Shown piece by piece: positions 11,925 to 38,130 of a stretch of 64,000 nucleotides of DNA. This stretch comes from a virus (lineage: Duplodnaviria; Heunggongvirae; Uroviricota; Caudoviricetes), in the IMG/VR virus record IMGVR_UViG_3300029549_000273. One strand, written 5' to 3'. Position 1 is the first letter of the stretch. Every line of letters begins with the position of its first letter. The position numbers and the translations under genes were made by a program. The notes below the pieces were generated by a model. The model saw only the letters and a program-made list of their open reading frames with translations. It did no database searches and was not told the DNA's origin.

Positions 11925-12095
11925 TTTATAAAATAGTCTTGTTTATATAAAAGTCAGCGGTATATAGCCGCTGACAGAACTTTCTTTTTGTTTGTGATAC
12001 TTCCTTGGTATGTTCTTAGCATAGCGACAAATATGAGAAATGGCCCATTTTTGCACAAGGAACCCAAGAACCCAAGAATTCTTGCGAATTGGAAT
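11925..12095. repeat. Conserved intergenic leader module, copy A (hairpin, palindrome and iterons)
   Basis: Contains tatataaaagtcagcggtatatagccgctgaca...gatacttccttggtatgttcttagcatagc...ggaacccaagaacccaagaa. Homologous to the copies at 22.5, 28.7, 32.7, 35.9 and 38.0 kb. Confidence 0.6.
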
Positions 12096-12122
12096 GGTTT
12101 TCTGGGAATCCTCAAAATTGGA

Positions 12123-12151
12123 TTGACTTTTTAATGCAAATTTGGTATAAT
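12123..12151 (+). promoter_or_regulatory. Plus-strand sigma-70 promoter TTGACT-N17-TGgTATAAT for the only plus-strand gene
   Basis: The sequence is gaTTGACTttttaatgcaaatttggTATAATat. Confidence 0.5.
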
Positions 12152-12279
12152 ATACTTGCAACGATGGATAACACGTTTGCATCATTTTTTTCATTTCTCC
12201 CCTTCAATAATATGGTGGATGGACAGTTCTTTGTGAAACTGTGTCCATTCACCATATTTCTTTTTTGTGGAGGTTTTTA

Positions 12280-12596
12280 TGAACAAGAAGTCTTTTTCCG
12301 GCCACGATATATCGGAGGCTGCCAATCTGCCAGTTGCTCCCCTCACACCTGATGACAACGAGTTCTACGCCCTGTGCGGGTTCATCGACGATATCTTTTT
12401 ACTGCCTGAGCGCCGAGAACGCATCGTGAAACTCGCACAGGACAACCACCTACCCATCTTCATGGTTGTGAATATGGTTGAACCTTACTTTGCGCTCAAC
12501 CATATTACAGAGTATGACCACTCGCCTGATTCGTTTGAGACGGTGTTCAAGTATCTAAAGACACTCGCTGACGAGGAGGGGGAACTGTTCGAATAA
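12280..12596 (+). CDS. Hypothetical protein (105 aa), the only plus-strand gene in the window
   Basis: GGAGG lies 6 nt before the ATG (MNKKSF...). A hairpin CAGGG...CCCTG follows the stop codon. Confidence 0.5.
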
Positions 12597-12683
12597 TCTT
12601 TTTTCATCAACACGCAAAAAAACAGGGCAGCTATGCTACCCTGTTGATGTGTCTTGTTGTGTGATTCTTTCTGCTGTGGCAAC

Positions 12684-13229
12684 TCAATCTTCGCAAGGCA
12701 GGCAGGACGCATCCATAACCTGCTCGTACAGTTTCTTGAATGCCCGGATGCGCAAGTCGTAATCATAATAGACAACTTTTGATTCCACGACATCCTCCCG
12801 CTCAACAGCTGGAAGAATCTTTATGACAACGGTATTTCTTTTTTTATTGATGGCCTCTCTGTCCTGTGTGAGGACTGTGATGGCGTAGATTTCCTTCGTT
12901 CTCGGATACAATTCCAGGATAAAAGAAACCTTGTTCACCATGTCCAGAATCTGAAAACGCTGCCGCTTCTCGACATAATCATAAGACTGGCGGCGGGAAG
13001 CGCGGGATAGCACGATATCTTCGGAGACCTTATCGGCGAAGATGGCGTCTTCAAAGATGGTGCCGAGGATAATTCCAGCCTTCTCAATGGAGCAGTTTCT
13101 TTCGGTGGAGCGGTCCTCAAAGTGTTCGCTGTAGAACAGGTTCCACTCCCCATCCAGTCCGTTCGCGTGCCCCATGTAGATGGTTGTGGCATTCCGAAAT
13201 GTGGCAATTTGGGGTTCTTTCTCCTTCAT
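12684..13229 (-). CDS. Hypothetical protein (181 aa)
   Basis: ORF with a ribosome-binding site; a terminator follows downstream. Confidence 0.5.
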   Translation of the reverse strand: MKEKEPQIATFRNATTIYMGHANGLDGEWNLFYSEHFEDRSTERNCSIEKAGIILGTIFEDAIFADKVSEDIVLSRASRRQSYDYVEKRQRFQILDMVNKVSFILELYPRTKEIYAITVLTQDREAINKKRNTVVIKILPAVEREDVVESKVVYYDYDLRIRAFKKLYEQVMDASCLPCED

Positions 13230-13242
13230 GTTTTTTCTCCTT

Positions 13243-13280
13243 AAATAAAGATTGTTACAAAGAAGGAGACACCGATTTCT
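13243..13280 (-). terminator. Rho-independent terminator after the SSB-like gene
   Basis: The hairpin GGAGACACCGagaaatCGGTGTCTCC is followed by TTCTTTGT. Confidence 0.55.
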
Positions 13281-13309
13281 CGGTGTCTCCTTGCTTTGTA
13301 TGTGCCGAA

Positions 13310-13963
13310 TCAGAACGGCAGCTCACCGTCATCATCAGAGATGTCGATAAAGCCGTCGTCGTTCATAGCGGGCGCTGCGGAAGCGTATGCGGCAGGACTA
13401 CCGCCGGACGCCTGCGCGTTGCCGCCGTTCTCCAGCATGACATTTGCGTTCTCCTTTTCCACCTTATCGGCTCCCACATGGTCCTTGGCAAACAGGGACA
13501 CGCGGCCAAAAGCGGCACGCTTCTTCCCTTCCTTATCCGTATAGACGGACAGTTCGCCGGAGAGAACGATGTTCTGCTTGAAGGTCAAATTGGGGTCGCC
13601 CATGACCTGATACAGGCCCATCGTGCTGCGGTCCATGAACACGCCGGCATACAGCTTGCCATTGATAAGTTCGACGCCGGTGGTTTCCAGGAACTCCTTG
13701 AAGGTCAGGTACTTCCCATCGTAATAGACAGAAGAGAAAGGATTGCCGTTGTTGCTCTTGCGGTCATCCGGGGAGATAACAACAGTACAGGCAATCTGCT
13801 TGTACTGCTTGTTGTTCTTGGATGTGCGCTCGATGACCTTGAACGGCTTTGCCCCACTCTTGGGGAAGTGGATGCCGCACTGGAACGTGCCGGTGATGCT
13901 GACGCTCTTTTCGCCCTTATAGGTGGAGACGACGTTCAGGTTGTTGGTGTACTCAGACATGAT
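13310..13963 (-). CDS. Putative single-stranded-DNA-binding-like protein with a C-terminal acidic DDDGELPF tail
   Basis: The internal start MSEYTNNL is preceded by AAAGGAGAAAAAA. The C-terminus DISDDDGELPF resembles the SSB acidic tip. The N-terminal domain is not a textbook SSB OB-fold. Confidence 0.4.
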   Translation of the reverse strand: MMSEYTNNLNVVSTYKGEKSVSITGTFQCGIHFPKSGAKPFKVIERTSKNNKQYKQIACTVVISPDDRKSNNGNPFSSVYYDGKYLTFKEFLETTGVELINGKLYAGVFMDRSTMGLYQVMGDPNLTFKQNIVLSGELSVYTDKEGKKRAAFGRVSLFAKDHVGADKVEKENANVMLENGGNAQASGGSPAAYASAAPAMNDDGFIDISDDDGELPF

Positions 13964-14185
13964 TTTTTCTCCTTTTCGAAATAATTTTTGTGATTGTAGC
14001 TTGCACATTAAAAAAATGGGACAAGCGATTCTTCCCTGCGGACAGTTCCGAATGCGCTTGTCCCAGCGAAGTATCAAGTCAATTTCATGAGAGATACTTC
14101 TTTAATGTAACGCCATCATACCCTACGATTTTCAATTTTCAAAACCTGTCTGTCCGGAACCTGAGAACTCAAGAACCCCAGCGGT

Positions 14186-16606
14186 TCACTGGCCGAACAT
14201 GGTGCAGAAGCGATAGAGCATGACAATGGTTTCAGCTCTCGTCATGTGGTACTGCGGACCAAGCGTTTGGTTCGACTGCCCCACGACAATGCCATTGGTC
14301 GCTGCCCAGCTCAGCGGGCGAACGGCGTAAGAAGAAACCGCGTAGAAATCAGCGTAAGCGTTCAGCACGCCAGTCTCCTGATAGTAAGCGAAGCCACGGC
14401 AGGTAGCGTAGCGGTACAGGATAGCGGCTGCCTGCTCACGAGTAACGGCGGCATACGGCTTAAAGGAGTTATCACCGTAGCCGGTGACAATGCCGTTCTC
14501 CGCAGCCCAGTAGATTGCATGAGCAAAGGGAGAGGAAGCAGCGACATCGGTGAAGTAGGTGTGACGTCCGGGATTCGGGCTTCCGCAGATACGGTACAGG
14601 AGCAGAACCAGCTCACCGCGAGAAACAGGCGTATTCGGGGAGAATACGTCGTTGGACACACCGTTGACGATGCCGCGAGAAGTCATGTAGCACAGCTCAT
14701 TGTAGTACCATGCAGAGTTGCTCACGTCATAGTACGGATTCTTCCAGCCCGGAGTCCAGTCATGGTTCGGTCCACCGGGATACCTGTTGCCGGCATTGTC
14801 CCAGTACCCGTTGATTCTGGTGAACTCCACGTCGAGGCGGTGGTCATCTCTGACGTTGGTGAAGGTGTACTGATTGTTGCGGGTGGAAACCAGAGAACCG
14901 TCCACATAAACGGCAGAAATCCGATAGCCTGCATCGGGTTCAAAGTAGAACGTGCGGCTATTTCCTCTGGCAACGGTGATACTGCCGCTGTCATTTGGCG
15001 TTACCGTACCGCCATAGCTGGAGCGAATGGTGATGTCAAATCTGGAGTTAGAGGAATTACGCTTTGCGAACTCAACGTAAATCTCGTGGTCCTCGCTGAC
15101 ATCGCGGAAGGTGTAGCTGCTCTTGGTCCCAACATACTCGTTATCGACATAGACGCCGATAATCTCATAGCCACTGTTCGCATAGAAGTTGAAAGTCTTA
15201 TCCGCACCATCCCGCACGGTATTCGTGCCAGACGGAGAAATGCGGCCGCCATCGGAAGCGGAAGCGTCGATGGTATACCGGTCATTCGTCGGTTTGGAGT
15301 GATTGGAAAGAATTTCGAAATGCTCCGTGGCATACGAGCCTCGGTAACTATTGATGCCGGTAACAAAGACAGTTGCCATGCCGACCTGTCTGTTGTTGGA
15401 GAAGCTCAGAGTGTAGTCCTCGCCTTCCGTCAGACGGTTGTTATAGCGGTCATAGACCTTTACCGTCGGCTCCTGATAGGTGCCGTCATAGTAGACATCA
15501 TTGACAACTACGCGGAAGTTCGTGCTAATGACGTCATCATCGACCTTGACATCATAGTAGGTCATTGTTCCTTCACGAACCGTAATAGCATAATTTGGGT
15601 TCACAGGGAATTCCGCACGGATGCCAAAGTACGGGCCATAAGAGTAGCCCGTCTTGGAATAGACGGAATAACGAGGCGAACCGAGGCTGTCGCCGGGGGC
15701 GAGACTGCCGCTGGTGATGTCATAGCGGAAGGTCGGGTCTGTATCTCGGATGCTGCAACGCACGTCGCGGATGCGCACCGTGATGGGAGCGGCCTGGATG
15801 GTGAACTCACGCATCTCGCTGACCTTGCTGTAGCTGCCGATTCCGTTGATGGTGACGCTGGCCTTGCCAGCATTGACGTTGTTGCGGTAAACGAGATTGT
15901 AGTCCCGTCCCTCTGTCAGCGTCTTTCCGGTGGAAGCGTCCTGAACGGTGGGCTTCGGCGTCTGAGCACTGCCGTTGTAGAAGACGTTGGACGGTCCGCT
16001 GATAACGACGGTGCCGAGCGTCTGGACAATCGTCAGAGTACCGGGCAGAACCGTGATTTCGTAATCGGCGTTGTCCTGGAAGGTCGCGCTGACCGTCTTG
16101 GTGCTGTTCCCGTTATCCTTCACGGAATACTGCGGCTGTCCAAGCGAATCTCCGGAAGCAAGTGTCCCCTGAAGAATCGTGTAGGTGTAGGAGGCCGGGT
16201 CCTTGACATCCTGCACATCGTCCACCTTCACGACTAACTGAGCGGGGTGAATGGTGAACTCACAGCTGCCAACATACCCTGCATACTTTCCCATTCCGAG
16301 AATGTACGCAATTCCCGTGCCGGCGTGAACATTGTTGCTGTATTCCATCCGGAAGTCAGTACCAGCAACCAGCTCCGTACCGCCCACTGTGATTTTTGGT
16401 GTCGGCGTCTGTGCTTTTCCGTTGTAGATGATGCCGCTGCTGTCGATTTCGCCGATACTGAGGCCGGACACGGCCTGCATTACGGCATAGCCCCCTTCTG
16501 TCCTCTCCGCCCCAGCAGTGTCGAGAGCTTGTGCCGGTGCTGTGACCAGCGTAAGCGTCAGAACTGCCGAGAGTGCGGCGGAACACACACGGTTTTTCCT
16601 ATTCAT
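14186..16606 (-). CDS. Cell-surface protein with a signal peptide, repeated MBG/Ig-like domains and three C-terminal S-layer-homology (SLH) domains
   Basis: The N-terminus MNRKNRVCSAALSAVLTLTLVTAPAQA is a signal peptide. The repeat YxIxxGxLAxGDSLGxPxYSV occurs several times. The C-terminal SLH motifs include FTDV...W....GIVTGYGDNSFKP...TREQAA. Confidence 0.8.
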   Translation of the reverse strand: MNRKNRVCSAALSAVLTLTLVTAPAQALDTAGAERTEGGYAVMQAVSGLSIGEIDSSGIIYNGKAQTPTPKITVGGTELVAGTDFRMEYSNNVHAGTGIAYILGMGKYAGYVGSCEFTIHPAQLVVKVDDVQDVKDPASYTYTILQGTLASGDSLGQPQYSVKDNGNSTKTVSATFQDNADYEITVLPGTLTIVQTLGTVVISGPSNVFYNGSAQTPKPTVQDASTGKTLTEGRDYNLVYRNNVNAGKASVTINGIGSYSKVSEMREFTIQAAPITVRIRDVRCSIRDTDPTFRYDITSGSLAPGDSLGSPRYSVYSKTGYSYGPYFGIRAEFPVNPNYAITVREGTMTYYDVKVDDDVISTNFRVVVNDVYYDGTYQEPTVKVYDRYNNRLTEGEDYTLSFSNNRQVGMATVFVTGINSYRGSYATEHFEILSNHSKPTNDRYTIDASASDGGRISPSGTNTVRDGADKTFNFYANSGYEIIGVYVDNEYVGTKSSYTFRDVSEDHEIYVEFAKRNSSNSRFDITIRSSYGGTVTPNDSGSITVARGNSRTFYFEPDAGYRISAVYVDGSLVSTRNNQYTFTNVRDDHRLDVEFTRINGYWDNAGNRYPGGPNHDWTPGWKNPYYDVSNSAWYYNELCYMTSRGIVNGVSNDVFSPNTPVSRGELVLLLYRICGSPNPGRHTYFTDVAASSPFAHAIYWAAENGIVTGYGDNSFKPYAAVTREQAAAILYRYATCRGFAYYQETGVLNAYADFYAVSSYAVRPLSWAATNGIVVGQSNQTLGPQYHMTRAETIVMLYRFCTMFGQ

Positions 16607-16654
16607 GCAAAATTTCTCCTTTCAAAATTTTTGGGGTTCCGCTCTATATATTAT

Positions 16655-16690
16655 CCCACATATACACTTATTAGTCAATTTATTTCTGAC
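16655..16690 (-). promoter_or_regulatory. Promoter TTGACT-N17-GATAAT upstream of the SLH surface-protein gene
   Basis: The reverse complement reads aaTTGACTaataagtgtatatgtggGATAATat. Confidence 0.4.
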
Positions 16691-16713
16691 TGAATATCCA
16701 AAAAGGCCAAAAA

Positions 16714-16758
16714 TATACAAAAAAACTGCGCGTCCTCCTTTTTCAGGAAGACGCGCAG
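16714..16758 (-). terminator. Rho-independent terminator downstream of the recD-like gene
   Basis: The hairpin GCTGCGCGTC...GACGCGCAG is followed by TTTTTTTG. Confidence 0.6.
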
Positions 16759-16762
16759 CTTT

Positions 16763-18988: not shown

Positions 18989-19069
18989 AGGCTGTCACCT
19001 CCTTCCGGAGGCACAGCGTCTGTGGCTGATGTGTCTCATTTTTTCATTTCTCCTCTCATTGAAGAAGCA

Positions 19070-20437: not shown

Positions 20438-20440
20438 TTC

Positions 20441-21240: not shown

Positions 21241-21299
21241 AAGCAGTTCTCCTTTCATGGGCGGCGGTGTGGGATTGCTCCGCACACCGCCGTAATCAC

Positions 21300-22496
21300 T
21301 TACTTCCAAGCAACTGTTCCACCGATGTCATAATCGGACCAGTTGAGGTTCAGCGTCTTTCCGATAAGCTCTTCCAACTCCAGAACCTTCGCATCGCTCG
21401 CACCTGCGTGCTTGGCGTAGGTGGGGATTTGTGCCATGCTCAGGTAGATGTCCAGCGCAGACATACGCGGCGAGTTGATAACGAAGGTGTCAACCTCCTC
21501 ACGCGCCGGGTCAGCGTACTTTCTGGGAATTTTCAGGTAGGAGCAGATACCGACGAGGCAGTTGACGGGATTGGAGATTTCCATGCTTCCCATCTTCTGC
21601 ATCATGGCAGCGCCATCCTCAAACAGCGCGTACAGTCCGTCCGCTTCATCCTCGAACTTCTCCAGTCCGTACTTCCCTGCCGCCAGCTTCTTGTGCTCGA
21701 CGCGAATGCCCTTTCCAATGGCGAAGGAGAAGGCCCCGCCTGGGGACATCAGCTTCGGCATCAGAATTGCCGAACTGGTCGCTGTGTCGCTGGTAGACAG
21801 TCGAACAACGGGCATCCAGTTGACAGCATGATTGCGGGAGACCGCGTTCGAAAGCGCCTTCTGGTACTTGTCAATGAGGTCGTCACGGACGTCGGGCAGC
21901 TCCCACACAGCGCTGGTATAGCTATGGGAATTGAACCCTTCCTTGAACTTCGGGACGCCGAATCGGTTGTTCAGCTTCTCCTTCGTGATACGGACCAACT
22001 CGCTGATGCGCATAATGGCGTAACCGTCGGATGCGCCGCTGTGCAGCGCGGACAGTTTGCCATAACGCAGCAGGAGAAGCCCGTTTCCCTTGGCATACCG
22101 CAGAGCGATATTCAAGCACTGCGCAAGGTCGGCAAACCCTTCCGCTTTCACCATGTTCGCATTGGCGGGGCCAATCAAACCGGCGGTGGTGTAGAGTGTC
22201 GCACGACCGGTATCACGCAGGCACCAGGTTGTGCCCTGATACTGAACCATGAGGTTCGTACCGTAACCACCATGCAAATCGTTGACGGCGGTATCATGTG
22301 CCGTATCATGGTCAACGCCATACTTTGCCACAGCGTCCGCTACGAACATCGGCCCATCCAGAGGAATGACCTGAAGCTCTTTGCGAGGGATTTCGGGGAG
22401 CCACTCGCTGTTGTTTTCCATGTCCCGGATAGAGTCGATAAATTCCGACTCGTCATGGAACATTTCTTGGAAATCGTCAAAAATCTTGCTGCTCAT
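21300..22496 (-). CDS. Hypothetical protein (398 aa)
   Basis: The ORF has AAAAGGAGAAATGAAAAAATG upstream. It is preceded by leader repeat copy B. Confidence 0.55.
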   Translation of the reverse strand: MSSKIFDDFQEMFHDESEFIDSIRDMENNSEWLPEIPRKELQVIPLDGPMFVADAVAKYGVDHDTAHDTAVNDLHGGYGTNLMVQYQGTTWCLRDTGRATLYTTAGLIGPANANMVKAEGFADLAQCLNIALRYAKGNGLLLLRYGKLSALHSGASDGYAIMRISELVRITKEKLNNRFGVPKFKEGFNSHSYTSAVWELPDVRDDLIDKYQKALSNAVSRNHAVNWMPVVRLSTSDTATSSAILMPKLMSPGGAFSFAIGKGIRVEHKKLAAGKYGLEKFEDEADGLYALFEDGAAMMQKMGSMEISNPVNCLVGICSYLKIPRKYADPAREEVDTFVINSPRMSALDIYLSMAQIPTYAKHAGASDAKVLELEELIGKTLNLNWSDYDIGGTVAWK

Positions 22497-22514
22497 TTTT
22501 TCATTTCTCCTTTT

Positions 22515-22690
22515 CGTGAATTATTAGGTGATATATAAAAGCCAGTATCCGCAAGGGATACTGACTGAACTTTCTTTATGTATGTGATACTTCCTTTGTA
22601 TGGTCTCAGCATACCGGCGGATGAAGAAAACGCCTTATTCTCCTTTCAAGAACCCAAGAACCGAGGAACTTTACGGCCCAGTAAGGCAAC
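22515..22690. repeat. Conserved intergenic leader module, copy B
   Basis: Contains tatataaaagccagtatccgcaagggatactgactgaactttctttatgtatgtgatacttcctttgtatggtctcagcataccggcgg...caagaacccaagaaccgaggaac. Confidence 0.6.
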
Positions 22691-22859
22691 GAAGCCTTTC
22701 CTCCCGGAAAAACAGTGCAAATATGCCCTCTCATGGTGCATTTCTGCTCTTGCATGGACCTTTGGAATCCGGACAAAAAAGCGAGCAGGCATTAAGCCTG
22801 CTCGCGGTTTGCTGTTCGCTGAATGCGGATTCAGTTTTAGCCCCGAAGGGTGGCAAAAA

Positions 22860-28174: not shown

Positions 28175-28189
28175 AGGGTTATCCCCCAC

Positions 28190-28735
28190 TCAGTTCCAGC
28201 AGAGATTCCTGATTTCGCGGTCAGACAGACCAATCGTTCCATCCAGCATCTCCGTCAAGAACTCATACTGCTCGTCGCCAGTCATGCGGTCGGCATACTC
28301 CAAAACATTGTGGATAATGCGACCCGCCGTGCCGTCGATGTCGAAGTTGTTCAGAAGCCACTCGTAAGTGCCTTCGAGGCCGCAGGCTTCAGTCTCCTCG
28401 TCATCTGTGTTGGCGTCGCCATTTTCAAGAGCGTCAGCAAGGTCGTTGAGCATCTCTTGGATGGCGTCAGCGTCTTCCACCAACGTCTTGATGTCTGGCA
28501 CACCACTCACGCTGCTCTGCGCATCGACCAACATCTTGACGTGTTCCTCGGTATCGAAGCTGTCCGCGTAAGAACGGACTTCGGCTGCAAGACTCTCGGC
28601 GTCAGATGCGTCTTTCGTCAGAACCGTGAAGGAGAAATCTTCCCCCGCCGGACTGCACTGGTTAAATTCGATGCTATCGCTGTCCATATCGACTGCCCAT
28701 CCGTAGCTTTCTGCAATTTGAATCATTTTTTCCAT
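28190..28735 (-). CDS. Hypothetical acidic protein (181 aa)
   Basis: ORF with AAAAAAGGAGAATTAAAAAATG upstream. It is preceded by leader repeat copy C. Confidence 0.5.
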   Translation of the reverse strand: MEKMIQIAESYGWAVDMDSDSIEFNQCSPAGEDFSFTVLTKDASDAESLAAEVRSYADSFDTEEHVKMLVDAQSSVSGVPDIKTLVEDADAIQEMLNDLADALENGDANTDDEETEACGLEGTYEWLLNNFDIDGTAGRIIHNVLEYADRMTGDEQYEFLTEMLDGTIGLSDREIRNLCWN

Positions 28736-28744
28736 TTTTTAATT

Positions 28745-28925
28745 CTCCTTTTTTGAAATTTTTTTGATATATAAAAGCCAGTATCCGTATGGACGCTGAC
28801 TGAATTTTCTTTGTGTTTGTGATACTTCTTTTGTATGGTCTCAGCATACCGGCAGGCACGGAAAACTCCGCATTTTGCAAATTGGAACCTAAGAACCGAG
28901 GAACCTCAAATCTGGAGTGTGAAAA
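28745..28925. repeat. Conserved intergenic leader module, copy C
   Basis: Contains gatatataaaagccagtatccgtatggacgctgactgaattttctttgtgtttgtgatacttcttttgtatggtctcagcataccggcagg...ggaacctaagaaccgaggaacc. Confidence 0.6.
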
Positions 28926-28938
28926 GACAAAAAGAAAA

Positions 28939-28964
28939 AGCGCCGCCCACAAAGGGGCGGCGCT
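28939..28964 (-). terminator. Rho-independent terminator after the 28970..29182 gene
   Basis: The hairpin AGCGCCGCCCCtttgtGGGCGGCGCT is followed by TTTTTCTTTTTG. Confidence 0.55.
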
Positions 28965-28969
28965 CAGGT

Positions 28970-29936: not shown

Positions 29937-29965
29937 TTTTCATTTCTCCTTTTTCCGTATTTTTC

Positions 29966-30511: not shown

Positions 30512-30539
30512 GCTTCTGTCTCCTTTCGAGTCAAGAAAA

Positions 30540-31970
30540 TCAGTTGTTGGGCTTCAGAATATCGGGTATCCAGTTTTCAGCAGATGGCCTGCGGAGGCTC
30601 TCCGGCACGCAATCATAGAACGCCGAATTTTCCGCCACAGCCATGTCGATAATCCAGAAATCGTCACCATTCTGCATCACGTCGATGCTCCACTGGCCTT
30701 GCAGGTCAAGCGCCGGCAGGAATTCCCGAATGTGTTCCACCACGGAATCGACATTCTCATGGTAGCGCCGCATCAAGGTCGCTTCGTGACTTTTGAAAAT
30801 CACATAATCGTGCATCTGATGCGGACTGTTTGCGTCCGAGCATGAACCAAAGCGATTGAGCATAGTCTTCGGCTCCCAATAGGGAGAGACACCGATGACA
30901 GCATCGCTGTCACAGTCAACAAATACGCGATATTCCGTATGAAGCGGCAAACCATGATAGATACAGGGATTTCCCTCTTTATCTGGAATGAATTCCCGCA
31001 CGACCCACTCATTTGTCGTTGAGACCCCATAAATGCAGGGAAAGCTAAGGGGACCGGCCATCTGTAACGCCTGATGGTGGATGTAGAGCAAATACTCGCC
31101 AAGTTCTCGAACCTCTTTTTCTCCGTGTACCAGGCAATTCCGGAAGTCGAACTTCGATGAATAGGTGCCGGTTTTCACGAAGTAATCCCGCTCGTCATTC
31201 AGGCGAAATACAGCGTGCGCCCAGTTATCGACGATTTGGATGGTCGAAGGCGTTAGGCTGTGATAGTCCAGACGAGTCATCTGTAAGAGCGTCAGGGGGA
31301 CCTTGGCTATCGTCGTTGCCGGAATCCGGAAGAATCCAGAATCCCGGTAGGCACGCACAAGCTCCGGGAACCAATGTCCGATGGAGTTGCGATTCTGCCC
31401 GATGATGCGGTAGGCCAGCGCATCAAGGTCAAGGATGTCCAGTCCCTGCCGAAAGCGGTTATACGCATCCCGACGCTCCTTCGGCGTCTTCCCGTTCTGC
31501 ATCTTGTCGTAGTAGAACAGGAGCGCAGCTGAGGCAGTGATGTCAAGGTCTCGCTTCATCAGTTCCCCACTCAGCTGCGGTCGCAGCGAAGCGGGAATTC
31601 GCAGCAGGTCCTGATTGGTGACAGGAGCATTTTTCTCCGGTGCGTTGGAAAGCGATTTTTCAATTTTGTCTGTTTTTCCATCATAAGTGTAGGTCAGCGT
31701 TTGCCCGATAAGCTCCTTCACGATGCGCTCCGTAAGAGCTTTCAGCTCTTCCGGGCTGTCGTCGCCGAGCCGCTCGTTTTTCGCCGCTGCCTGCCTGGAA
31801 TTGACCTCGAAAATGCTTTCTGGCTCAGTCTGCAACGCAGCTTTGGAATAAGCCTTCTCGAAGGCGTCCAGTGCATCAGGACTGACGCGCAGGATTTCCG
31901 CGATTCGGTCTCTGCTAATGTAGAATTTCTGTGCGGATGTCTGAGCAAACAGATTGTCTAAACCAAACAT
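30540..31970 (-). CDS. Hypothetical protein (476 aa), possibly an ATP-grasp-like fold
   Basis: Large ORF. The C-terminal motifs are only weakly suggestive. Confidence 0.45.
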   Translation of the reverse strand: MFGLDNLFAQTSAQKFYISRDRIAEILRVSPDALDAFEKAYSKAALQTEPESIFEVNSRQAAAKNERLGDDSPEELKALTERIVKELIGQTLTYTYDGKTDKIEKSLSNAPEKNAPVTNQDLLRIPASLRPQLSGELMKRDLDITASAALLFYYDKMQNGKTPKERRDAYNRFRQGLDILDLDALAYRIIGQNRNSIGHWFPELVRAYRDSGFFRIPATTIAKVPLTLLQMTRLDYHSLTPSTIQIVDNWAHAVFRLNDERDYFVKTGTYSSKFDFRNCLVHGEKEVRELGEYLLYIHHQALQMAGPLSFPCIYGVSTTNEWVVREFIPDKEGNPCIYHGLPLHTEYRVFVDCDSDAVIGVSPYWEPKTMLNRFGSCSDANSPHQMHDYVIFKSHEATLMRRYHENVDSVVEHIREFLPALDLQGQWSIDVMQNGDDFWIIDMAVAENSAFYDCVPESLRRPSAENWIPDILKPNN

Positions 31971-31982
31971 CTTCAGCCCTCC

Positions 31983-32729
31983 TTATGAGATTTGAGAATC
32001 GGCGTTCTTCACATAGTCTTTCACTTTCTTCTGAAGCTGGTTGACCTTGCAAATCACGTTCTCCTCGTCGTCGATATCCTCGTAACTGCTGTCACAGCCG
32101 TCTACCACATTACCGTTTGCGGCAATGTAGAGCGTATCGAAGGCAATGCTGTTGTACTCTGTGGAGTAATCCGTTACCAGCTCGTCCATGTCGGTCCTGA
32201 GCACCTCCGGTGCTCTTACGCCGATGCCGTTCTTGTTGGCACGTCCGGTATTTAACAGCCAATTCAAATCGTCATCCTTGACCGAATGCTGTTTACCCTG
32301 GCCGAAGAAGGACAAGCCGCTCAGAATTTTCGCGTTGTCATTGTCGCGGAACGCCTCGTGGAACATATCCACAGAGACATCGACCTCGCACATATCCTGC
32401 TCTTCCATCTTAGCATACGATTCCAGCAGCGTCAGCGCGAGGTCGCGCATCTGCTCCTTCGACGTCGCTCCGTTGGTGGCGACATAGAAAGCAGCCGGCA
32501 TCGTGTCATAACGCTCCGCAAGCTCAAAGTACCGCTTGATGGCCGGAACATTCAAAGACGGCTCGCCGCCCGTGAAAATGACGGAAGCAGGGTGGATATG
32601 CTTAGCGATGCCCGACAGAACTGCTGTTGAGATGTCAAGATTTTGCGCATCTCCGCGCAGGCAGTGGTTGCATTTCATGTTGCAGCGACGAGTGACCTCA
32701 ATGGCGAGGTAATTTACATAAATCTCCAT
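31983..32729 (-). CDS. Radical SAM domain protein
   Basis: The CNMKCNHC sequence is a CxxxCxxC motif right after the start, and VIFTGGEPSL is glycine-rich. The internal start MEIYVNY is 9 nt after GGAG. Confidence 0.6.
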   Translation of the reverse strand: MEIYVNYLAIEVTRRCNMKCNHCLRGDAQNLDISTAVLSGIAKHIHPASVIFTGGEPSLNVPAIKRYFELAERYDTMPAAFYVATNGATSKEQMRDLALTLLESYAKMEEQDMCEVDVSVDMFHEAFRDNDNAKILSGLSFFGQGKQHSVKDDDLNWLLNTGRANKNGIGVRAPEVLRTDMDELVTDYSTEYNSIAFDTLYIAANGNVVDGCDSSYEDIDDEENVICKVNQLQKKVKDYVKNADSQIS

Positions 32730-32744
32730 TTTCATTTCTCCTTT

Positions 32745-32915
32745 TTTGTGATGGTTATGTGATATATAAAAGCCAGCACCCACGCGGGCGCTGACTGAAC
32801 TTTCTTTTTTGTTTGTGATACTTCTTTGGTATGGTCTCAGCATACCGGCGGAAGTAGAAATTGCCGCATTCACCTTCCAAGAACCTGAGAACTGAAGAAC
32901 CGGAGAACTGCAAAG
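32745..32915. repeat. Conserved intergenic leader module, copy D
   Basis: Contains gatatataaaagccagcacccacgcgggcgctgactgaactttcttttttgtttgtgatacttctttggtatggtctcagcataccggcgg...aagaacctgagaactgaagaaccggagaac. Confidence 0.6.
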
Positions 32916-32919
32916 AAAA

Positions 32920-32945
32920 AGCGCCGTCCATTACGGGCGGCGCTT
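32920..32945 (-). terminator. Rho-independent terminator after the 32951..33868 gene
   Basis: The hairpin AGCGCCGCCCgtaatgGACGGCGCT is followed by a U-run. Confidence 0.5.
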
Positions 32946-32950
32946 TTTCA

Positions 32951-33868
32951 TCAAATTTTGTGGGTGCAGTACGGGCAGCGCTCGTCTGTTGCGTAGCAGA
33001 TGCACTCGGTATCATCCTGCCAGGGGTGGCAGGTATTGATGCGGAACCGTGCGGAAAGCGCGGTTTCCAGATAGTCGGTCACAGGACCAATGGCGGCCAT
33101 ATCCCAGCGAAGCGGAAGCCCGTCGTCGGCATCCTCCTGTAAGGAGTGTTCGCCGGCGGCTTCCTTCGCCTCGTCCGTAGCGTCAGACAGGAGGCCCTCC
33201 GGAAGCGCGTTGACGTGTTCCACGGAAAACTCATTCACAGCTGCGAGAAGAGCCTCTTTCGGCGCTTCCCCGTTTACGCTGTGGCCTGTGACAACCGCGC
33301 AGATGAAGTCGAACACTGCGTTGTCGATGCGGTCGCCGGCCTCGGCGAGGAGGTCGTTGTCCTTGACAGGCTCCCTGCGGATGGTGCCATGCGTCCACGG
33401 CCCTGTGTAGGTGCCGATGCTTGGCAGGCGCTCCAGCAGGGCTGCTTTCATGCCGTCAAGGTACGCCTTGTAGTGCTTCCTCTGGAAACCCTCCGAACAG
33501 GGGTTATCCTTCTGAAGCAGTTCCACGGCATAGGCCCAGTCGCTGTCCTCAATGCCGATGTAAAACAGGCTGCTTTCGAGGATGACGCGCACATTGCGGC
33601 CAAGCCACTTGTCCTGCTTGACACGCGCAAAGCTGGGATACCTGTGCGTGAAGTTCTCCACAAAGCACTCCAGCACATCCTCCAGCTCGTTCGCACTGCC
33701 TTCGTCATCGAAGAGCCAGCCGTTGCCGGACAAATCCTTGGCGCTGAGGTCTTTCTGGAGGATGGTATCCTCACAGTCATCCTCGCGGCGAAGCACTGTG
33801 GTATAGTCGCTGTCGATATAGAACAGGCCCTCATACGGACCGCTCACACAAACATTACCTTTTCCCAT
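32951..33868 (-). CDS. Hypothetical protein (305 aa), Cys-rich C-terminus
   Basis: ORF with a ribosome-binding site. The C-terminus is CHPWQDDTECICYATDERCPYCTHKI. Confidence 0.5.
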   Translation of the reverse strand: MGKGNVCVSGPYEGLFYIDSDYTTVLRREDDCEDTILQKDLSAKDLSGNGWLFDDEGSANELEDVLECFVENFTHRYPSFARVKQDKWLGRNVRVILESSLFYIGIEDSDWAYAVELLQKDNPCSEGFQRKHYKAYLDGMKAALLERLPSIGTYTGPWTHGTIRREPVKDNDLLAEAGDRIDNAVFDFICAVVTGHSVNGEAPKEALLAAVNEFSVEHVNALPEGLLSDATDEAKEAAGEHSLQEDADDGLPLRWDMAAIGPVTDYLETALSARFRINTCHPWQDDTECICYATDERCPYCTHKI

Positions 33869-33906
33869 TTTTTCATTTCTCCTTATTGTTAAAAAATCGT
33901 AGATTC

Positions 33907-34110
33907 TCAGATGTCGTCATCACCGACATCGAACCCCAAATGACAGAATCCAAACTCGTCGGACAGCCAGTTGGAAATCGTGTCGAGCCATTCTTCCCTA
34001 CTTGCAAAATGGGACTGGTCGAATCTGCTTGGCAGCTCAACTTCCTTCGGCAGGGAGGCTCTTGCCTCCCTGTCGCCGTCGGTGTCCCAAAGGATATTGC
34101 GGATTTTCAT
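33907..34110 (-). CDS. Hypothetical small protein (67 aa)
   Basis: The internal start MKIRNIL follows AAAGGAGAAATA. Confidence 0.4.
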   Translation of the reverse strand: MKIRNILWDTDGDREARASLPKEVELPSRFDQSHFASREEWLDTISNWLSDEFGFCHLGFDVGDDDI

Positions 34111-34121
34111 TATTTCTCCTT

Positions 34122-34526
34122 TCAGTCGGCGGACACATACCACCAGCCGGTGTATCTGTCTTCTTCGTGATTTCTTTCGTCCTCCTTGTGGTCGTAGTAG
34201 CCGGTGTGGAGGTCAAAGGCCTCCCCTCGTTCGTTGTAAAGCTGCCACAGGAGGTCGCACAGCGCGTTCGCGGCAGATTCTGTCTTGCACAGAATCTGGT
34301 CCCCATCGCTCCAGACTTCGCCATCGGAATAGTCGCGAACCCGCGCACAGATGAACGAAAAGAAATCCTTTTCTGCATAGCTGTCGCAGTTCACGGAGAT
34401 ATCGAGCGTTTTGCTGACATTCTCAATCTCGTCGTAGTGTCCTTTGACGAGATAGTTGTTCACGATGAACTGCATCCGCTTGGAGCACACGCCCACATGA
34501 GTGCAGTTGAGACAAGTCTTCTGCAT
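34122..34526 (-). CDS. Hypothetical protein (134 aa)
   Basis: ORF with GAAGGAGGATTGCTG upstream. Confidence 0.5.
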   Translation of the reverse strand: MQKTCLNCTHVGVCSKRMQFIVNNYLVKGHYDEIENVSKTLDISVNCDSYAEKDFFSFICARVRDYSDGEVWSDGDQILCKTESAANALCDLLWQLYNERGEAFDLHTGYYDHKEDERNHEEDRYTGWWYVSAD

Positions 34527-34527
34527 A

Positions 34528-35202
34528 TCAGCAATCCTCCTTCATCATGAAATCCTTCATAGCGTAGTCCTGGCAGCCGTCATCGCCCAGTCTCGGAGCC
34601 TTTCCGGTGACGAAGGGCAGCTTGCAGATGCCGTGCGGATTGAAGACACAGAACTCCGTGTCGCATTCCGTACACAGCTTCTCCAGTTCGGCGTAGTTAT
34701 CCCGTTCCTGGTCGGAACTGCACTCAATCTTCGTCAGATATTTCAGGCTGGCATTCATGGTATTCCCGGTTTTGAGCAGGTAGTTGAACATACCGTTTCC
34801 GGTATCGTCCCTCTCCACGCTCAGGAACCTCACGGTTGCAGCCTCAGAACGAGGCAGCAGCTCGACGATTTTGACCGTGGCACGGGAAGCATTCTCCGTT
34901 CCAAAGCCATAGGTACAGACATCGCCGGCCTTCAGCTCCTGTGCAGGCTGATTGTGACGGCAGGTATCGGTCTCGGAGTTGTAATCGCAGTTCTCCACGC
35001 ACTTGTCCTCCGGATGCTGGCAGGCGTCACAGAGCATCAGCCGCTTGCCGCAATGAGGGCAGAACGCCTTGTAGCCGTCTGCGGCCACATTCCATCGCAT
35101 CTCAACCTCTGCTTCGCAATGCGGGCAGACCTCTGTCACGATATACTCGCGGTCTTTGCAGGAACCGGTGGTTTTCTCACTAATATTAGTCATAATTCTC
35201 AT
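34528..35202 (-). CDS. Cys-rich protein with multiple zinc-ribbon-like CxxC pairs
   Basis: Contains CPHCEAE...CPHCGKR...CDAC...C..C..C and CTEC...C. Confidence 0.5.
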   Translation of the reverse strand: MRIMTNISEKTTGSCKDREYIVTEVCPHCEAEVEMRWNVAADGYKAFCPHCGKRLMLCDACQHPEDKCVENCDYNSETDTCRHNQPAQELKAGDVCTYGFGTENASRATVKIVELLPRSEAATVRFLSVERDDTGNGMFNYLLKTGNTMNASLKYLTKIECSSDQERDNYAELEKLCTECDTEFCVFNPHGICKLPFVTGKAPRLGDDGCQDYAMKDFMMKEDC

Positions 35203-35217
35203 TCTCCTTCTTTTTTG

Positions 35218-35916
35218 TCAGTCACGCCAGTATGCGCCGTCTTTCGCTTCGCCCTTCGGGAAAACGGTATACTCTGTTCCGTGCAGCACGATGTACTCAT
35301 GGTTCAGAACATTGACAGAATCTCCAACGTCAATGGTCTGAATGTTGAATACCTGCTTTGTGTCCAGACAGACGTCTGCCTTTGTCGCCGCAATGCAATT
35401 TCCGCCGTCCCAAACGGAGACATAAGGGATGTTGCGAACGATGGAAGGCTCTTCCTCAGTGCTCTGCTCAGCTTTCTCCAGAGCTGCCCGTACCTCGCCA
35501 ATCTGCCAAGAAGGCATCAACGGGAATCCGGCTCTCGTATAGAGACCGCCGCCCGCCTCCGCCTTCTCCAAGGCGGCCTTTGCGGCGTCCTCGGATGCGA
35601 AGATGGTGTACTGGCTGACCTCGATACCGGGCAAGTAGGAAAACGTCTTCGTTTTACCATCAGAGCATTCGACTTCGGTCATTCCCGAATAGGCAACGCC
35701 CGTCCAGCCAAACCAACCGGGTTCCACAAATTCGGAGAAGGTCACAGTAGACACCGTTACTTTTACGACCGCCAACTCTCTCGTGGACGGACGATACAGC
35801 CGACCGTATTTGTTGACTTTCTGCTTAAAGGTGATTGCGTACACCTCGGAGCCAATGCCGATGGGAACGCCGTCAGCAGTCTTGCACGCTGGTAAGAGAT
35901 ATGCCTTGTTCTTCAT
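35218..35916 (-). CDS. Hypothetical protein (232 aa)
   Basis: ORF with AAAGGAGAAACGAAAAAAATG upstream. It is preceded by leader repeat copy E. Confidence 0.5.
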   Translation of the reverse strand: MKNKAYLLPACKTADGVPIGIGSEVYAITFKQKVNKYGRLYRPSTRELAVVKVTVSTVTFSEFVEPGWFGWTGVAYSGMTEVECSDGKTKTFSYLPGIEVSQYTIFASEDAAKAALEKAEAGGGLYTRAGFPLMPSWQIGEVRAALEKAEQSTEEEPSIVRNIPYVSVWDGGNCIAATKADVCLDTKQVFNIQTIDVGDSVNVLNHEYIVLHGTEYTVFPKGEAKDGAYWRD

Positions 35917-35934
35917 TTTTTTCGTTTCTCCTTT

Positions 35935-36100
35935 TTGTTTATGAAATTTTTATATATAAAAGCCAGCATCCGCAACGGACGCTGACTGAACTTTCTTTGT
36001 GTTTGAGATACTTCTTTTGTATGATTTCAGCATACCGGCAGAAGAGAAAAAATCACCTATTTCCTGATGGAGAACCTAAGAATATGAGAACTCGATTGTG
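35935..36100. repeat. Conserved intergenic leader module, copy E
   Basis: Contains tatatataaaagccagcatccgcaacggacgctgactgaactttctttgtgtttgagatacttcttttgtatgatttcagcataccggcag...ggagaacctaagaatatgagaac. Confidence 0.6.
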
Positions 36101-36154
36101 GCAAAACATGGAAAAAGCGCCGGCGGATATTTTCATCCACCGACGCTTCAGTTG

Positions 36155-37150
36155 TTAAGTCGCGTGGAGCTTCCACTCGCTCTTCTCGCGGTCCACCGTA
36201 TAGATGAATGGCAGCGTGCCAGCCATCTCCCAGTTGATATACTTGCTGGGTTCCTGCGTTGTGACGACGCGATTGATGACGATGTGGCCTTCCCTGTCGG
36301 ACTCGACATACTTGCCGTCACCGTCCTCGATAAAGGAGTTGACGCTGAAATCCTGACCGGAACGGTACTGCTTCAGCTCAATCGCCATCCAGATGACCTC
36401 ATGGAAGCCAGCCTTAGCGGCCTCAATGGTATCGGCAGCGAATTTGTACCCGTAGCAGCCATCGCCGTCTTCCAGCATGATGCTGTTCACATATTTCTGC
36501 TCTTCCGCATCCCACTCCTTCAGGAGCTTCTTGTAGTCCATCTTCTCGTAGGTAGGACGGATGATGCGAAGCACTGCTTCCTGCTCGTCCTTTGATAAGG
36601 GGCGCACTGCCTCTACACAGACATCACCGAGCCACAGAGATACCGTGAGGTATGGCTTTGCGAGCTTGGTGCAGTATTCGTCTACATCCGCATAGATGTT
36701 ACAGTAGGAATCGTTCTGCTCCGTTTCAAAAAAGGTTCCGAATAGTCGGTCCACATCGGAAATGCCTTCCAGCATGACGTTCCACGTCTGCGTTTCATCG
36801 TCAAATAGGAAAGCATCGTTATTATAACGGTCAACGCAGAAATCAGAGTCGGTGATTTCTGCTCCCATGAGCTTCAGGGAGTCGATTTTTGCCAGTGACT
36901 TTCCCTTCTCTTCCTCTGAGCTTTCAACGAGACGAAGAGATGACGTAAGGAAATTTGACCGCTTCTCGTCCTGAAACAGCACCTCTACCATCTGGAGGTA
37001 AGGCTTGGTCTTCAGAAGGGCCATGATTCTGCCCGTCTGGTTATGGCGCTTGTTGCCGGAGGTGATGACCTGTACGGCGTCGAACAGGTGAAGGTTGATG
37101 CCATTGACATCCTTTACTTCGCTCCACTTCGGCATGATTCTATTATTCAT
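36155..37150 (-). CDS. Hypothetical protein (331 aa)
   Basis: ORF with AAAAAGGAGAAATGAAACATG upstream. A terminator follows it. Confidence 0.5.
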   Translation of the reverse strand: MNNRIMPKWSEVKDVNGINLHLFDAVQVITSGNKRHNQTGRIMALLKTKPYLQMVEVLFQDEKRSNFLTSSLRLVESSEEEKGKSLAKIDSLKLMGAEITDSDFCVDRYNNDAFLFDDETQTWNVMLEGISDVDRLFGTFFETEQNDSYCNIYADVDEYCTKLAKPYLTVSLWLGDVCVEAVRPLSKDEQEAVLRIIRPTYEKMDYKKLLKEWDAEEQKYVNSIMLEDGDGCYGYKFAADTIEAAKAGFHEVIWMAIELKQYRSGQDFSVNSFIEDGDGKYVESDREGHIVINRVVTTQEPSKYINWEMAGTLPFIYTVDREKSEWKLHAT

Positions 37151-37167
37151 GTTTCATTTCTCCTTTT

Positions 37168-37581
37168 TTAAGTCCACATCAAATTTATGCCGCCAACCTG
37201 CTCCACACGCTCTGTGATTTTCTGCGCGTCCTTCATACCGGGAATCGCGAATCTTGCGTTCCAAGCACGAATCAAATCCGACAAGGTTTTATCCTTGACG
37301 GGCACGGCAAAATCACAGCAGAAGTTGTATAGGGGCTGGTCCAGCATTTCCTCGTACACATCTTCGGTTCCTTCCACAATACGAATCCGCTTGGCTGTAT
37401 CGTGGATGTTGATGCGTCCGAGGTAGAGATGTCCGTGCAGTTCCTTCAGAGCCTTCAGCTTTTCTCGGTTCAGGTCGTTCAGAACACTGTCGGCCTCCGG
37501 CAGATTCAAAATGCCGCCGACGGAACGGATATGCTCCATCTCGGCTTGCATAAGCTGGTCGATTTTTTCCTGTGCGTTCAT
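37168..37581 (-). CDS. Hypothetical protein (137 aa)
   Basis: The internal start MNAQEKI follows GAAAGGAGAAAAC. Confidence 0.45.
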   Translation of the reverse strand: MNAQEKIDQLMQAEMEHIRSVGGILNLPEADSVLNDLNREKLKALKELHGHLYLGRINIHDTAKRIRIVEGTEDVYEEMLDQPLYNFCCDFAVPVKDKTLSDLIRAWNARFAIPGMKDAQKITERVEQVGGINLMWT

Positions 37582-37594
37582 GTTTTCTCCTTTC

Positions 37595-37966
37595 TCAAGC
37601 TGCCATCTGGTACAGCCATGCTTCAAAGTCTTCATAGTCCATCAGCCGTCCATCCACCTCGACGAATCCAGGCTGCGTTGTGCCGCGAACAACGGAAAAG
37701 GAATCTCCGCCGCCACAGAAAACGCGAATGTTCGTTCTGGAGATGCTCTCGCAGCGCAAGAAATACGAGCCGAGGCGTTCCCAAATTCGGGACATCTCCT
37801 CGTCGGTCGCTTCCCAACTGCGGTTTTGGCTGGTACGGACCTTTGTTGCGGATACGGACAACTCAACCTGCTCCGTATCTTCCGGCAGCCCAAGCTCCGC
37901 GCAGACCTCTTTCCACTTTGTTTCGTCACCGAAACCCCTCTTAAACATCATTGCTTTCATGTTCAT
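37595..37966 (-). CDS. Hypothetical protein (123 aa); paralog of 11490..11912
   Basis: Shares the motif W.EVC.ELGLPEDTEQVELSVSATKVRT with 11490..11912. It is preceded by leader repeat copy F. Confidence 0.5.
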   Translation of the reverse strand: MNMKAMMFKRGFGDETKWKEVCAELGLPEDTEQVELSVSATKVRTSQNRSWEATDEEMSRIWERLGSYFLRCESISRTNIRVFCGGGDSFSVVRGTTQPGFVEVDGRLMDYEDFEAWLYQMAA

Positions 37967-37974
37967 TTCTCCTT

Positions 37975-38130
37975 TTTGTTTATGAATTTTTTATATATAA
38001 AAGCCAGCATCCGCAACGGACGCTGACTGAACTTTCTTTGTGTTTGAGATACTTCCTTTGTATGCTCTGAGCATACCGGCAAATATGGAAACACGCCTAT
38101 TTTAATGTTGGGAACCTGAGAACCGAAGAA
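37975..38130. repeat. Conserved intergenic leader module, copy F
   Basis: Contains tatatataaaagccagcatccgcaacggacgctgactgaactttctttgtgtttgagatacttcctttgtatgctctgagcataccggc...gggaacctgagaaccgaagaatac. Confidence 0.6.

Follow-up and report, generated by a model that had tools for sequence, protein, structure and literature searches.

The 64,000-nt window examined here (IMG/VR virus record IMGVR_UViG_3300029549_000273, classed as Caudoviricetes) is part of a large mobile element of a common Oscillospiraceae bacterium of the gut and carries a family of modules of ~170 bp on its minus strand, which head operons unrelated to one another. We establish a repeat family, covariation of a hairpin, homology to canonical promoters, a fixed geometry and the features of a terminator. 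Each module is very probably a cassette of promoter plus leader, and terminator-based control of the downstream genes is probable. For the whole we favour, with slightly less confidence, an activator-dependent promoter followed by a leader terminator, the copies together forming one attenuation or antitermination regulon. The cassettes most likely place their operons under one shared read-through switch.

The module family and its promoter

The first-pass annotation of this DNA had reported at least six conserved leader copies. All six were recovered on the minus strand by repeat search, alignment and pattern search, at 11.93, 22.5, 28.74, 32.73, 35.92 and 37.96 kb, and they are nearly identical. 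A 33-nt core matched six times in the window (0 expected). With a covariance model derived from 15 paralogues, the same six copies scored 100–118 bits (E ≤ 1e-17), and nothing else in the window had E < 0.1. The repeat pattern exposed a seventh, divergent module at 13960–14177, which adds to the original count; at least seven operons in the window, and at least 15 on the full contig, begin with a module. Among ~185,000 reference genomes, the core motif was found in one, that of the cultured isolate Oscillospiraceae bacterium CM18GR_63, where a single 570-kb contig (JAWQDX010000001.1) holds at least 15 copies between 237 and 372 kb (a span of ~135 kb) on one strand throughout. Every one of 35 paralogue-level representatives lies on the gene strand. 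A search of the window against Rfam 15 in gathering mode found only tRNAs and two HEARO RNAs, and E-value mode over 35.9–38.25 kb gave nothing within a module. Neither one module (blastn) nor 20 kb (megablast) matched the plasmid and phage collections.

Related elements were reached through the SigA-like sigma factor gene that lies directly upstream of module 38.0 (38236–39357, minus strand; probable start GTG at 39357). A plain homologue search with this sigma factor returned only 99–100% identical variants, and a 50%-representative search led to orthologues in three distant relatives: P0122 (49% identity), P0126 (39%) and P0127 (38%), the level of the latter two being 34–37% by pairwise BLASTP. 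All three score above the general SigA background. The relative contigs (L078, L081 and L082–84) are syntenic one-strand gene arrays with UvrD upstream and an encoded protein resembling the C-terminal domain of the RNA polymerase alpha subunit (alpha-CTD). Homologous modules were present in all relatives (covariance-model scores of 51–54 bits in L078 and 20–31 bits in L081 and L082), and module positions are partly orthologous in the relative with the 49%-identical sigma factor. In L081 and L082 the module reads TTGACT-N17/18-TGGTATAAT, 12–16 nt, (A)ARGAAGTAT, an A/C-rich spacer of 26–36 nt, a 9–16-bp stem, T5–T7, ATATA(C/A) and a ribosome-binding site. P0122 was not found in IMG/VR, and a search of IMG/VR with the canonical-type module pattern gave three chance matches within coding sequence. 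The best plasmid match to the sigma factor, Subdoligranulum OY725880.1, has neither modules nor such promoters and was set aside, as it probably carries a host SigA.

The canonical promoters of the relatives show how the window modules can be read. The hexamer TATGCT of most window modules occupies the position of TATAAT in the TTGACT-N17/18-TGGTATAAT promoter of L081 and L082, and by this alignment with the N17 form it is the −10 box. It retains the critical T−12, A−11 and T−7; some copies carry TATACT or TATGAT, and TATACT is also the form found in L078 and two paralogues. A pyrimidine-A lies exactly 7 nt past the hexamer (six bases between) in all lineages, and the A of the conserved CA at this distance is the predicted transcription start. 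The hexamer lies 48 nt upstream of the stem. The annotation had described a palindrome here, which did not hold up: 8-bp arms occur only in module 38.0, and elsewhere the pair is GTATG/CATAC, with changes that are uncompensated and breaks in 3 of 15 copies. Because TATGCT aligns with the TATAAT of relatives and is followed by the pyrimidine-A, we read this stretch as −10 hexamer plus start site. An RNA stem or operator formed by GGTATG/CATACC was rejected for want of covariation, for the same broken copies and for lack of conservation in relatives; its right arm, CATAC, is not conserved in L078. Spacings are also unfit for a sporulation-sigma (E/K/G) reading of CATACA and GTATG.

Upstream of the hexamer, each module has two to four GGTTCY units in 8-bp phase at −70 to −48, in agreement with the degenerate 8-bp direct repeats first noticed. 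The form GTTCYNNRGTTCY occurs 13 times in the window (0.29 expected), 11 times inside modules, and the near-invariant box of ~40 nt that had been described is likewise present. The module promoters of the window and L078 lack a −35 box, and the GGTTCY array occupies −70 to −48 instead, a combination that suggests an activator-dependent layout. The units are probably sites for an element-encoded DNA-binding regulator that compensates for the absent −35, which makes the role of operator site, one of three suggested by the annotation, plausible for the repeats. The paralogue L014, near 3408–4603 (JAWQDX010000001.1, ~339–341 kb), has the repeats, TATGCT and GAAGTATC, the element discussed below; because only this promoter part is present there, it can occur without the terminator part.

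Plain promoters of the form TTGACA-17-TGnTATAAT, perfect and leaderless, stand before the sigma, RNase H and recombinase genes and others in the window, and in relatives the sigma gene, UvrD and a tRNA are likewise preceded by plain promoters. Because these coexist with the modules, the leader is a separable add-on. The sigma gene has its promoter at 39380–39408 and no leader module; its open reading frame (ORF) as listed begins with a TTG at 39408 that is actually the −35 box of this promoter. Another lies near the UvrD gene start at 48779, inside the listed ORF, so that the true UvrD start is probably further downstream. In L082, what comes after a complete module (4368–4600; promoter, GAAGTAT and terminator) is not a gene but another promoter, of the plain consensus kind, ahead of UvrD; the two may be promoters in tandem, or the module may specify a short RNA on its own.

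The RNase H gene (909–1585, minus strand) provides a second setting for the repeat units. Its perfect TTGACA-17-TGGTATAAT promoter (region 1585–1675) is followed, from +1 to ~+45, by inverted module repeat units (GAGAACCAAAGAACC) and then an 8-bp palindrome (TGTATTCT/AGAATACA). This suggests one DNA-binding regulator that activates at modules and perhaps represses at the RNase H promoter. Ribbon-helix-helix regulators, omega and MetJ among them, typically have arrays of 7–8-bp units that may point either way. Short units at many promoters of one element are also known from KorA/KorB of RK2 and from omega of pSM19035 (7-bp heptads, direct or inverted), and the recurrence of the 8-bp units, direct in modules and inverted at the RNase H promoter, suggests one backbone-wide regulator. 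The modules differ from those systems in that the whole promoter and leader are conserved, beyond the operator, and in that the binding protein is only putative.

Transcription must restart at the modules, because five of the six follow a strong terminator of the preceding operon (ΔG −21 to −25 kcal/mol plus a T-run). The strong intrinsic terminator of the sigma gene (38198–38241, minus strand) lies just upstream of module 38.0, and equivalent operon-end terminators lie at 36114–36149, 32915–32949, 28938–28965 and 22781–22805. Such a terminator had been assigned to every copy; module 11.9 has none and abuts a divergent plus-strand promoter instead. That promoter (consensus TTGACT-17-TGnTATAAT), back-to-back with the module, belongs to the only clear opposite-strand gene of the region (12123–12596; ORF 12267–12596), which encodes an acidic protein of ~105 residues without family match. 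We dropped this gene as a candidate regulator, as the protein has no DNA-binding signature. A minus-strand ORF of 83 codons that runs through module 11.9 (11943–12194) is probably spurious.

All modules have the same layout on the minus strand. Module 38.0 (37960–38132) has its repeats at 38111–38132, −10 hexamer TATGCT at 38070–38075, predicted +1 at 38063, GAAGTATC at 38048–38055, hairpin at 38003–38027 followed by the U-run, Shine–Dalgarno (SD) sequence at 37969–37972 and ATG at 37960. In module 35.9 (35916–36092) the repeats lie at 36071–36092, the −10 at 36029–36034, the predicted +1 at 36022, GAAGTATC at 36007–36014, the hairpin at 35962–35986, the SD at 35928–35931 and the ATG at 35916. 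Module 32.7 (32729–32909), which heads the radical-SAM operon, has four repeat units (32880–32909), followed by the −10 (32839–32844), predicted +1 (32832), GAAGTATC (32817–32824), hairpin (32772–32795), SD (32738–32741) and ATG (32729). For module 28.7 (28735–28905) the corresponding positions are 28884–28905 for the repeats, 28843–28848 for the −10, 28836 for the predicted +1, 28821–28828 for GAAGTATC, 28777–28800 for the hairpin, 28745–28748 for the SD and 28735 for the ATG. Module 22.5 (22496–22670) heads an operon that reaches a RecE-like exonuclease and a RecD2-like helicase; its repeats are at 22649–22670, −10 at 22608–22613, predicted +1 at 22601, GAAGTATC at 22586–22593, hairpin at 22541–22565, SD at 22507–22510 and ATG at 22496. 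Module 11.9 (11912–12080), whose operon ends in an HD-domain (MOBH-like) relaxase candidate (10095–10997), has its repeats at 12059–12080, −10 at 12018–12023, predicted +1 at 12011, GAAGTATC at 11996–12003, hairpin at 11953–11975, SD at 11921–11924 and ATG at 11912. The seventh module (13960–14177) shares the same three repeat units (14156–14177), a TATGAT hexamer (14115–14120; predicted +1 at 14108) and GAAGTATC (14093–14100) at equal spacing. Its leader is non-homologous and its terminator (~14017–14065, an 11-bp basal stem and U7) is stronger; the SD is at 13969–13972 and the ATG at 13960. Within this leader, GAAGUAUC, the RNA form of the element, pairs with GAUACUUC, its perfect complement.

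Hairpin, terminator and a conserved element in the leader

The hairpin extends from +37 to +61. Stems in the window have 9–12 pairs (ΔG −10 to −19 kcal/mol) and are followed by UUUUAUAUA. As the annotation had it, GCTTTTATATA comes after the hairpin and a ribosome-binding site further on: AAGGAGAA lies 27–31 nt from the start of the U-run, and then ATG. Across all lineages the stem of 9–16 pairs is followed by U4–U7 and then by an A/U-only stretch; the terminator is moderate in the window (U4) and strong in the relatives and the seventh module (U5–U7). By these features the hairpin is an intrinsic terminator between promoter and ribosome-binding site, from which we infer termination in vivo.

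The stem covaries between copies, as had been claimed. Among the 15 paralogues, 95.8% of the cells in 11 pairs are paired, and 7 of the 11 pairs show compensatory changes (20 cells). None of 500 shuffles reached the observed pairing, number of compensatory pairs, number of compensatory cells or covariation score, whereas 42 of 500 attained the observed number of further pair types. Sliding the partner by 1–3 columns brought pairing down to 27–51%. In 61 distinct copies, 96.4% of cells are paired and 67 are compensatory. G–U or U–G cells number 21 in the stem and A–C cells 5, and because the former far outnumber the latter, the structure appears to be selected on the gene-sense strand, as in the transcript. 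The leader RNA has a folding z of −4.3, whereas the 200-nt module as single-stranded DNA folds no better than shuffles (z of +0.11 for the minus and +1.18 for the plus strand). Of the suggestion that an RNA or single-stranded DNA structure is selected, the first half is supported and the second is not.

Between the start and the hairpin lie ~36 nt of leader that are predicted to be unstructured, including ~20 A/C-rich nt after GAAGTATC. A conserved antiterminator pairing was not found: AAAGGAAGUAUC fits the 3′ arm in some copies only, and pairing of GAAGUAUC with the 3′ arm was rejected because the box is invariant while the arm varies, so that the match is lost in CCGCUG-type stems and in relatives. 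Given the lack of a conserved alternative pairing and a short unstructured leader, protein-mediated relief is likelier than a riboswitch-like one. A leader peptide starting from the ATG in GGTATGCT (a 27-codon frame in some copies) was also rejected; it has no SD, two copies have ATA and loop indels break the frame.

At +9 to +16 lies GAAGTATC, the most constant part of the leader: none of the seven positions of GAAGTAT varies (2.0 bits each), and the C that follows carries 1.7 bits. GAAGTATC occurs nine times in the window (1.4 expected), and seven of these are at +9 to +16 of modules. GAAGTAT lies 14 nt past the −10 in 29 of 32 copies, and 12–16 nt past it in relatives, whereas its distance to the hairpin varies from 18 to 36 nt across lineages. 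The fixed spacing to the promoter suggests that something happens to the polymerase complex early in elongation. With an A at position 2 and a T at position 6, AAGTAT (+10 to +15) bears the signature of a −10-like pause element. In Bacillus subtilis, polymerase retains sigma-A during elongation (PMC12478191), and sigma-bearing complexes pause at −10-like elements in transcribed DNA, which also act as Q loading points (PMC9191641). We rejected a STAB-SD (stabilizing Shine–Dalgarno) reading of AAGGAAGU, whose invariant part, GAAGUAU, differs from the SD core.

A read-through switch and its alternatives

Of the three roles suggested by the annotation, an attenuator or antiterminator leader fits best, with a sigma-A promoter upstream and a textbook intrinsic terminator in the relatives. 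In the mechanism that we propose, each cassette would restart transcription past the terminator of the previous operon, with a regulator of the element bound to the GGTTCY units and activating in place of the −35. Transcription would begin at the A of CA and continue through GAAGTATC and the A/C-rich leader, and the hairpin with UUUUAUAUA would halt most transcripts at ~+65 to +70. Downstream genes would be expressed only upon read-through of the leader terminator by RNA polymerase. Because the distance of GAAGTATC to the promoter is fixed and that to the terminator is not, we propose that the early elongation complex is modified there, at a sigma-dependent pause or a factor loading site, as for lambda Q at pR′ or RfaH at ops. 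This role of GAAGTATC as a loading or pause site is speculative, and we offer it tentatively. At least 15 operons, DNA-processing and transfer genes included, would thus be coupled to one switch.

Several observations count against this reading. The start site and termination are predictions. The U-run of the window copies comprises four U before AUAUA, so that the terminator is possibly leaky, and the paralogue L014 has no recognisable terminator hairpin or U-run before its SD. Residues for −35 and −10 recognition are canonical in the sigma factor, although the module promoters of the window have no −35 box. At +23 to +26 the sequence is ACAA, unlike the TNYG consensus for scrunched sigma-dependent pauses (PMC9191641), and invariance of all 7–8 bases of GAAGTATC goes beyond the requirement of sigma region 2 alone. 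Searches of the window ORFs against Pfam and NCBIfam found no NusG/RfaH-like (NGN/KOW), Q-like or other known antiterminator domain.

The main alternative is a promoter and leader without regulated antitermination, in which the hairpin would be a leaky terminator or insulator with low fixed output, or a stabilising or processing structure; in one variant, GAAGUAUC would be an RNA site for a protein or RNase that affects stability or translation. We regard this as possible, if clearly less probable than a switch. The short U-run and the failure to find an antiterminator gene among the window ORFs both suit it, and the pairing of GAAGUAUC with its perfect complement in the seventh-module RNA hints at a role at the RNA level. 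Processive antitermination would also not be required, as the operons located between 28 and 39 kb showed no strong terminator in their interior. Against it, the full-strength terminators (5–7 U) of the relatives and the seventh module would block expression without relief. GAAGTAT is spaced to the promoter and not to the hairpin or SD, contrary to what one would expect of a site that acts purely on RNA stability or translation, and the leaderless plain promoters of the same elements argue that the leader adds regulation.

Alternatively, the modules could be a family of small RNA genes, with terminated transcripts of ~65–70 nt that combine a conserved 5′ seed, GAAGUAUC, with a terminator hairpin. 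Promoter, conserved 5′ sequence and terminator are indeed the anatomy of such a gene, and the L082 module at 4368 precedes a second, plain promoter before the next gene. We consider this improbable, because nearly all copies stand 27–31 nt before a consensus SD and start codon and after the terminator of the previous operon, which is the layout of a cis leader. Potential targets are also missing from the window: GATACTTC occurs on its sense strand in a single case, as the complement inside the seventh module, and the remaining extra match to GAAGTATC, at 46895, is sense-oriented and hence no target.

A function at the level of DNA is less probable again, whether as a Frpo/ssi-like single-strand promoter or primer, as replication iterons or as a promoter with TATATA as its −10 and the conserved box as operator region. 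The element does encode conjugation-type genes (a VirB4/TraG-like ATPase and the HD-domain relaxase candidate), and TATATA is conserved past the hairpin. However, neither strand is more structured as single-stranded DNA than its shuffles, the copies extend over ~135 kb, and the hairpin tolerates G–U and not A–C. No −35 stands at a fixed distance from TATATA, loop lengths vary, and relatives have a perfect −35 and extended −10 promoter upstream of GAAGTAT and the hairpin. The single-strand promoters of a conjugative leading region that the annotation had considered are thus disfavoured by folding and span alike, and nothing was found in support of iterons in the replication sense. A spread remnant of an insertion sequence or miniature inverted-repeat transposable element, as a dispersed multi-copy repeat of ~170 bp might suggest, is the least credible explanation: no terminal inverted repeat is common to as many as three modules and no target duplications were seen, orientation is constant and register with SD and ATG is kept, the upstream boundary fades gradually, the stem changes by compensation while the box is invariant, and orthologous positions are partly retained in the relative with the 49%-identical sigma factor.

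If the modules are read-through switches, their function is most like that of the lambdoid pR′–pause–tR′ unit, and the logic of the regulon like that of RfaH/ops. As in the lambdoid unit, a short conserved element that bears the A2/T6 signature of a −10 box (AAGTAT) lies no more than ~15 nt past the promoter, and an intrinsic terminator then stands before the regulated genes, so that a short terminated RNA is expected without the factor. The differences are that each element here has at least 15 copies rather than one, that no Q-family gene was found among the window ORFs, that there is no TNYG pause site, that all eight bases of the element are invariant and that the setting is a Firmicute mobile element, not a phage. 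With RfaH/ops (JUMPStart), LoaP and UpxY the cassettes share a short conserved DNA element in many leaders. Elements of the RfaH/ops type lie in the leaders of long operons, including plasmid transfer operons, and recruit a factor to the early elongation complex that suppresses termination. In contrast, GAAGTATC has no sequence relation to ops (GGCGGTAGnnTG), and the window encodes nothing like NusG. Here the element of each leader is also followed directly by a terminator, and conservation takes in promoter and leader as one cassette. Alike in host phylum and kind of element are conAn (pLS20 family) and canT (Tn916), where terminators silence the transfer genes until an element-encoded antitermination function acts; this function is processive, and each operon has a single large structured RNA for it, plus the ConAn1 protein (PMC8191782, PMC11658703). 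Unlike conAn2, canT and put, the modules have a ~36-nt unstructured leader that is repeated before many operons, and no large cis RNA. The cassette fails the defining features of the lambdoid, RfaH/ops, conAn and canT families.

The element, its sigma factor and wider meaning

The sigma protein matches solved SigA structures at ~170 bits but stays under the cut-offs of the RpoD family. Only ~46 residues precede region 1.2, so region 1.1 is mostly absent, and an insertion of ~15 residues (WDSLSKREQQKKL...) is common to the protein and its orthologues in related elements. The orthologues in the three relatives keep the adjacency to modules, which suggests a functional link. Across four lineages, sigma residues and promoter type showed no clean pattern of co-variation. 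Near the sigma gene, 40817–42079 (minus strand) encodes a protein of 420 residues that brings together a helix-turn-helix like that of sigma region 4, a domain resembling the alpha-CTD of RNA polymerase and, at its C terminus, a zinc ribbon, and that is a candidate for a transcription adaptor at the modules. L078 and L082/L083 have shorter homologues close to their sigma genes; in L081, Pfam identifies a protein with an alpha-CTD domain that BLASTP does not match to the window protein. The 420-residue protein and a helix-turn-helix protein encoded at 53377–53931 are also the first candidates for binding the GGTTCY array or GAAGTATC.

Almost all window genes are on the minus strand. Recognisable products include a serine recombinase, RNase H, the MOBH-like HD-domain relaxase candidate, SLH/MBG surface proteins, a RecD2-like helicase, a RecE/YqaJ-like exonuclease, a radical-SAM enzyme, UvrD, flotillin and a VirB4/TraG-like ATPase. 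A tRNA array at 6406–8464 (minus strand) comprises eight genes by ARAGORN (Gly, Met, Glu, Asn, Leu, Tyr, Thr and Gln) and nine by Rfam, which is unusual inside a mobile element other than large phages and megaplasmids. An IscB-type (RRXRR) gene (43188–44624) is accompanied by two HEARO/omega RNAs (44853–45016 and 46216–46435; region 43188–46435, minus strand), the second of which has no intact IscB adjacent. One window protein recurs unchanged in 9,131 blocks of an assembly collection, on contigs of 200–440 kb, and pieces of the element are filed as viral in IMG/VR.

These features resemble those of Hodors, highly prevalent conjugative megaplasmids of gut Bacillota described in a 2026 preprint (PMC12934698). 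Compared by description only, both are very prevalent gut Bacillota elements with contigs of >200 kb that are often filed as viral (PMC12934698), and in both the MOBH-like HD relaxase and the helicase are separate proteins, accompanied by a VirB4-like ATPase and SLH/MBG surface proteins. The GC content of L078 (46.9%) is close to that of Hodor group G1 (47.1%), whereas the window, at 52%, lies outside the Hodor range of 44.6–47.1%. The preprint mentions neither a sigma factor nor repeated promoters, and reports a putative AT-rich origin of transfer (oriT) of 171–172 bp upstream of the relaxase gene (PMC12934698). In the window, the spacer that heads the relaxase operon is a module (11912–12080) of about the same size and AT content. 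By this analogy, and as a lead only, the putative Hodor oriT could be such a module; AT-rich 170-bp spacers upstream of the relaxase genes of related megaplasmids may be promoters and not oriT.

A bolder view, which we consider doubtful, is that the cassettes and the SigA paralogue of the element form a self-contained, host-independent late switch of gut megaplasmid-like elements. A sigma-containing complex would be caught at GAAGTATC and made resistant to the terminator by retained sigma or an element protein. If true, antitermination of a Q-like kind would operate outside phages as a regulon of at least 15 loading sites, without kinship to the known antiterminator families. A read-through factor, should it prove new, would bring the kinds of antitermination system in Gram-positive mobile elements to four. 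The GGTTCY units and GAAGTATC are defined baits for the regulators, and the cassette is a natural portable part, comprising promoter, 5′ untranslated region and ribosome-binding site, for the engineering of Oscillospiraceae, a family in which this is difficult. The element is extremely common and its genes are almost all uncharacterised; with a single cassette at the head of most operons of the transfer and DNA-processing region, there is now a handle on how these giant gut elements are switched on.

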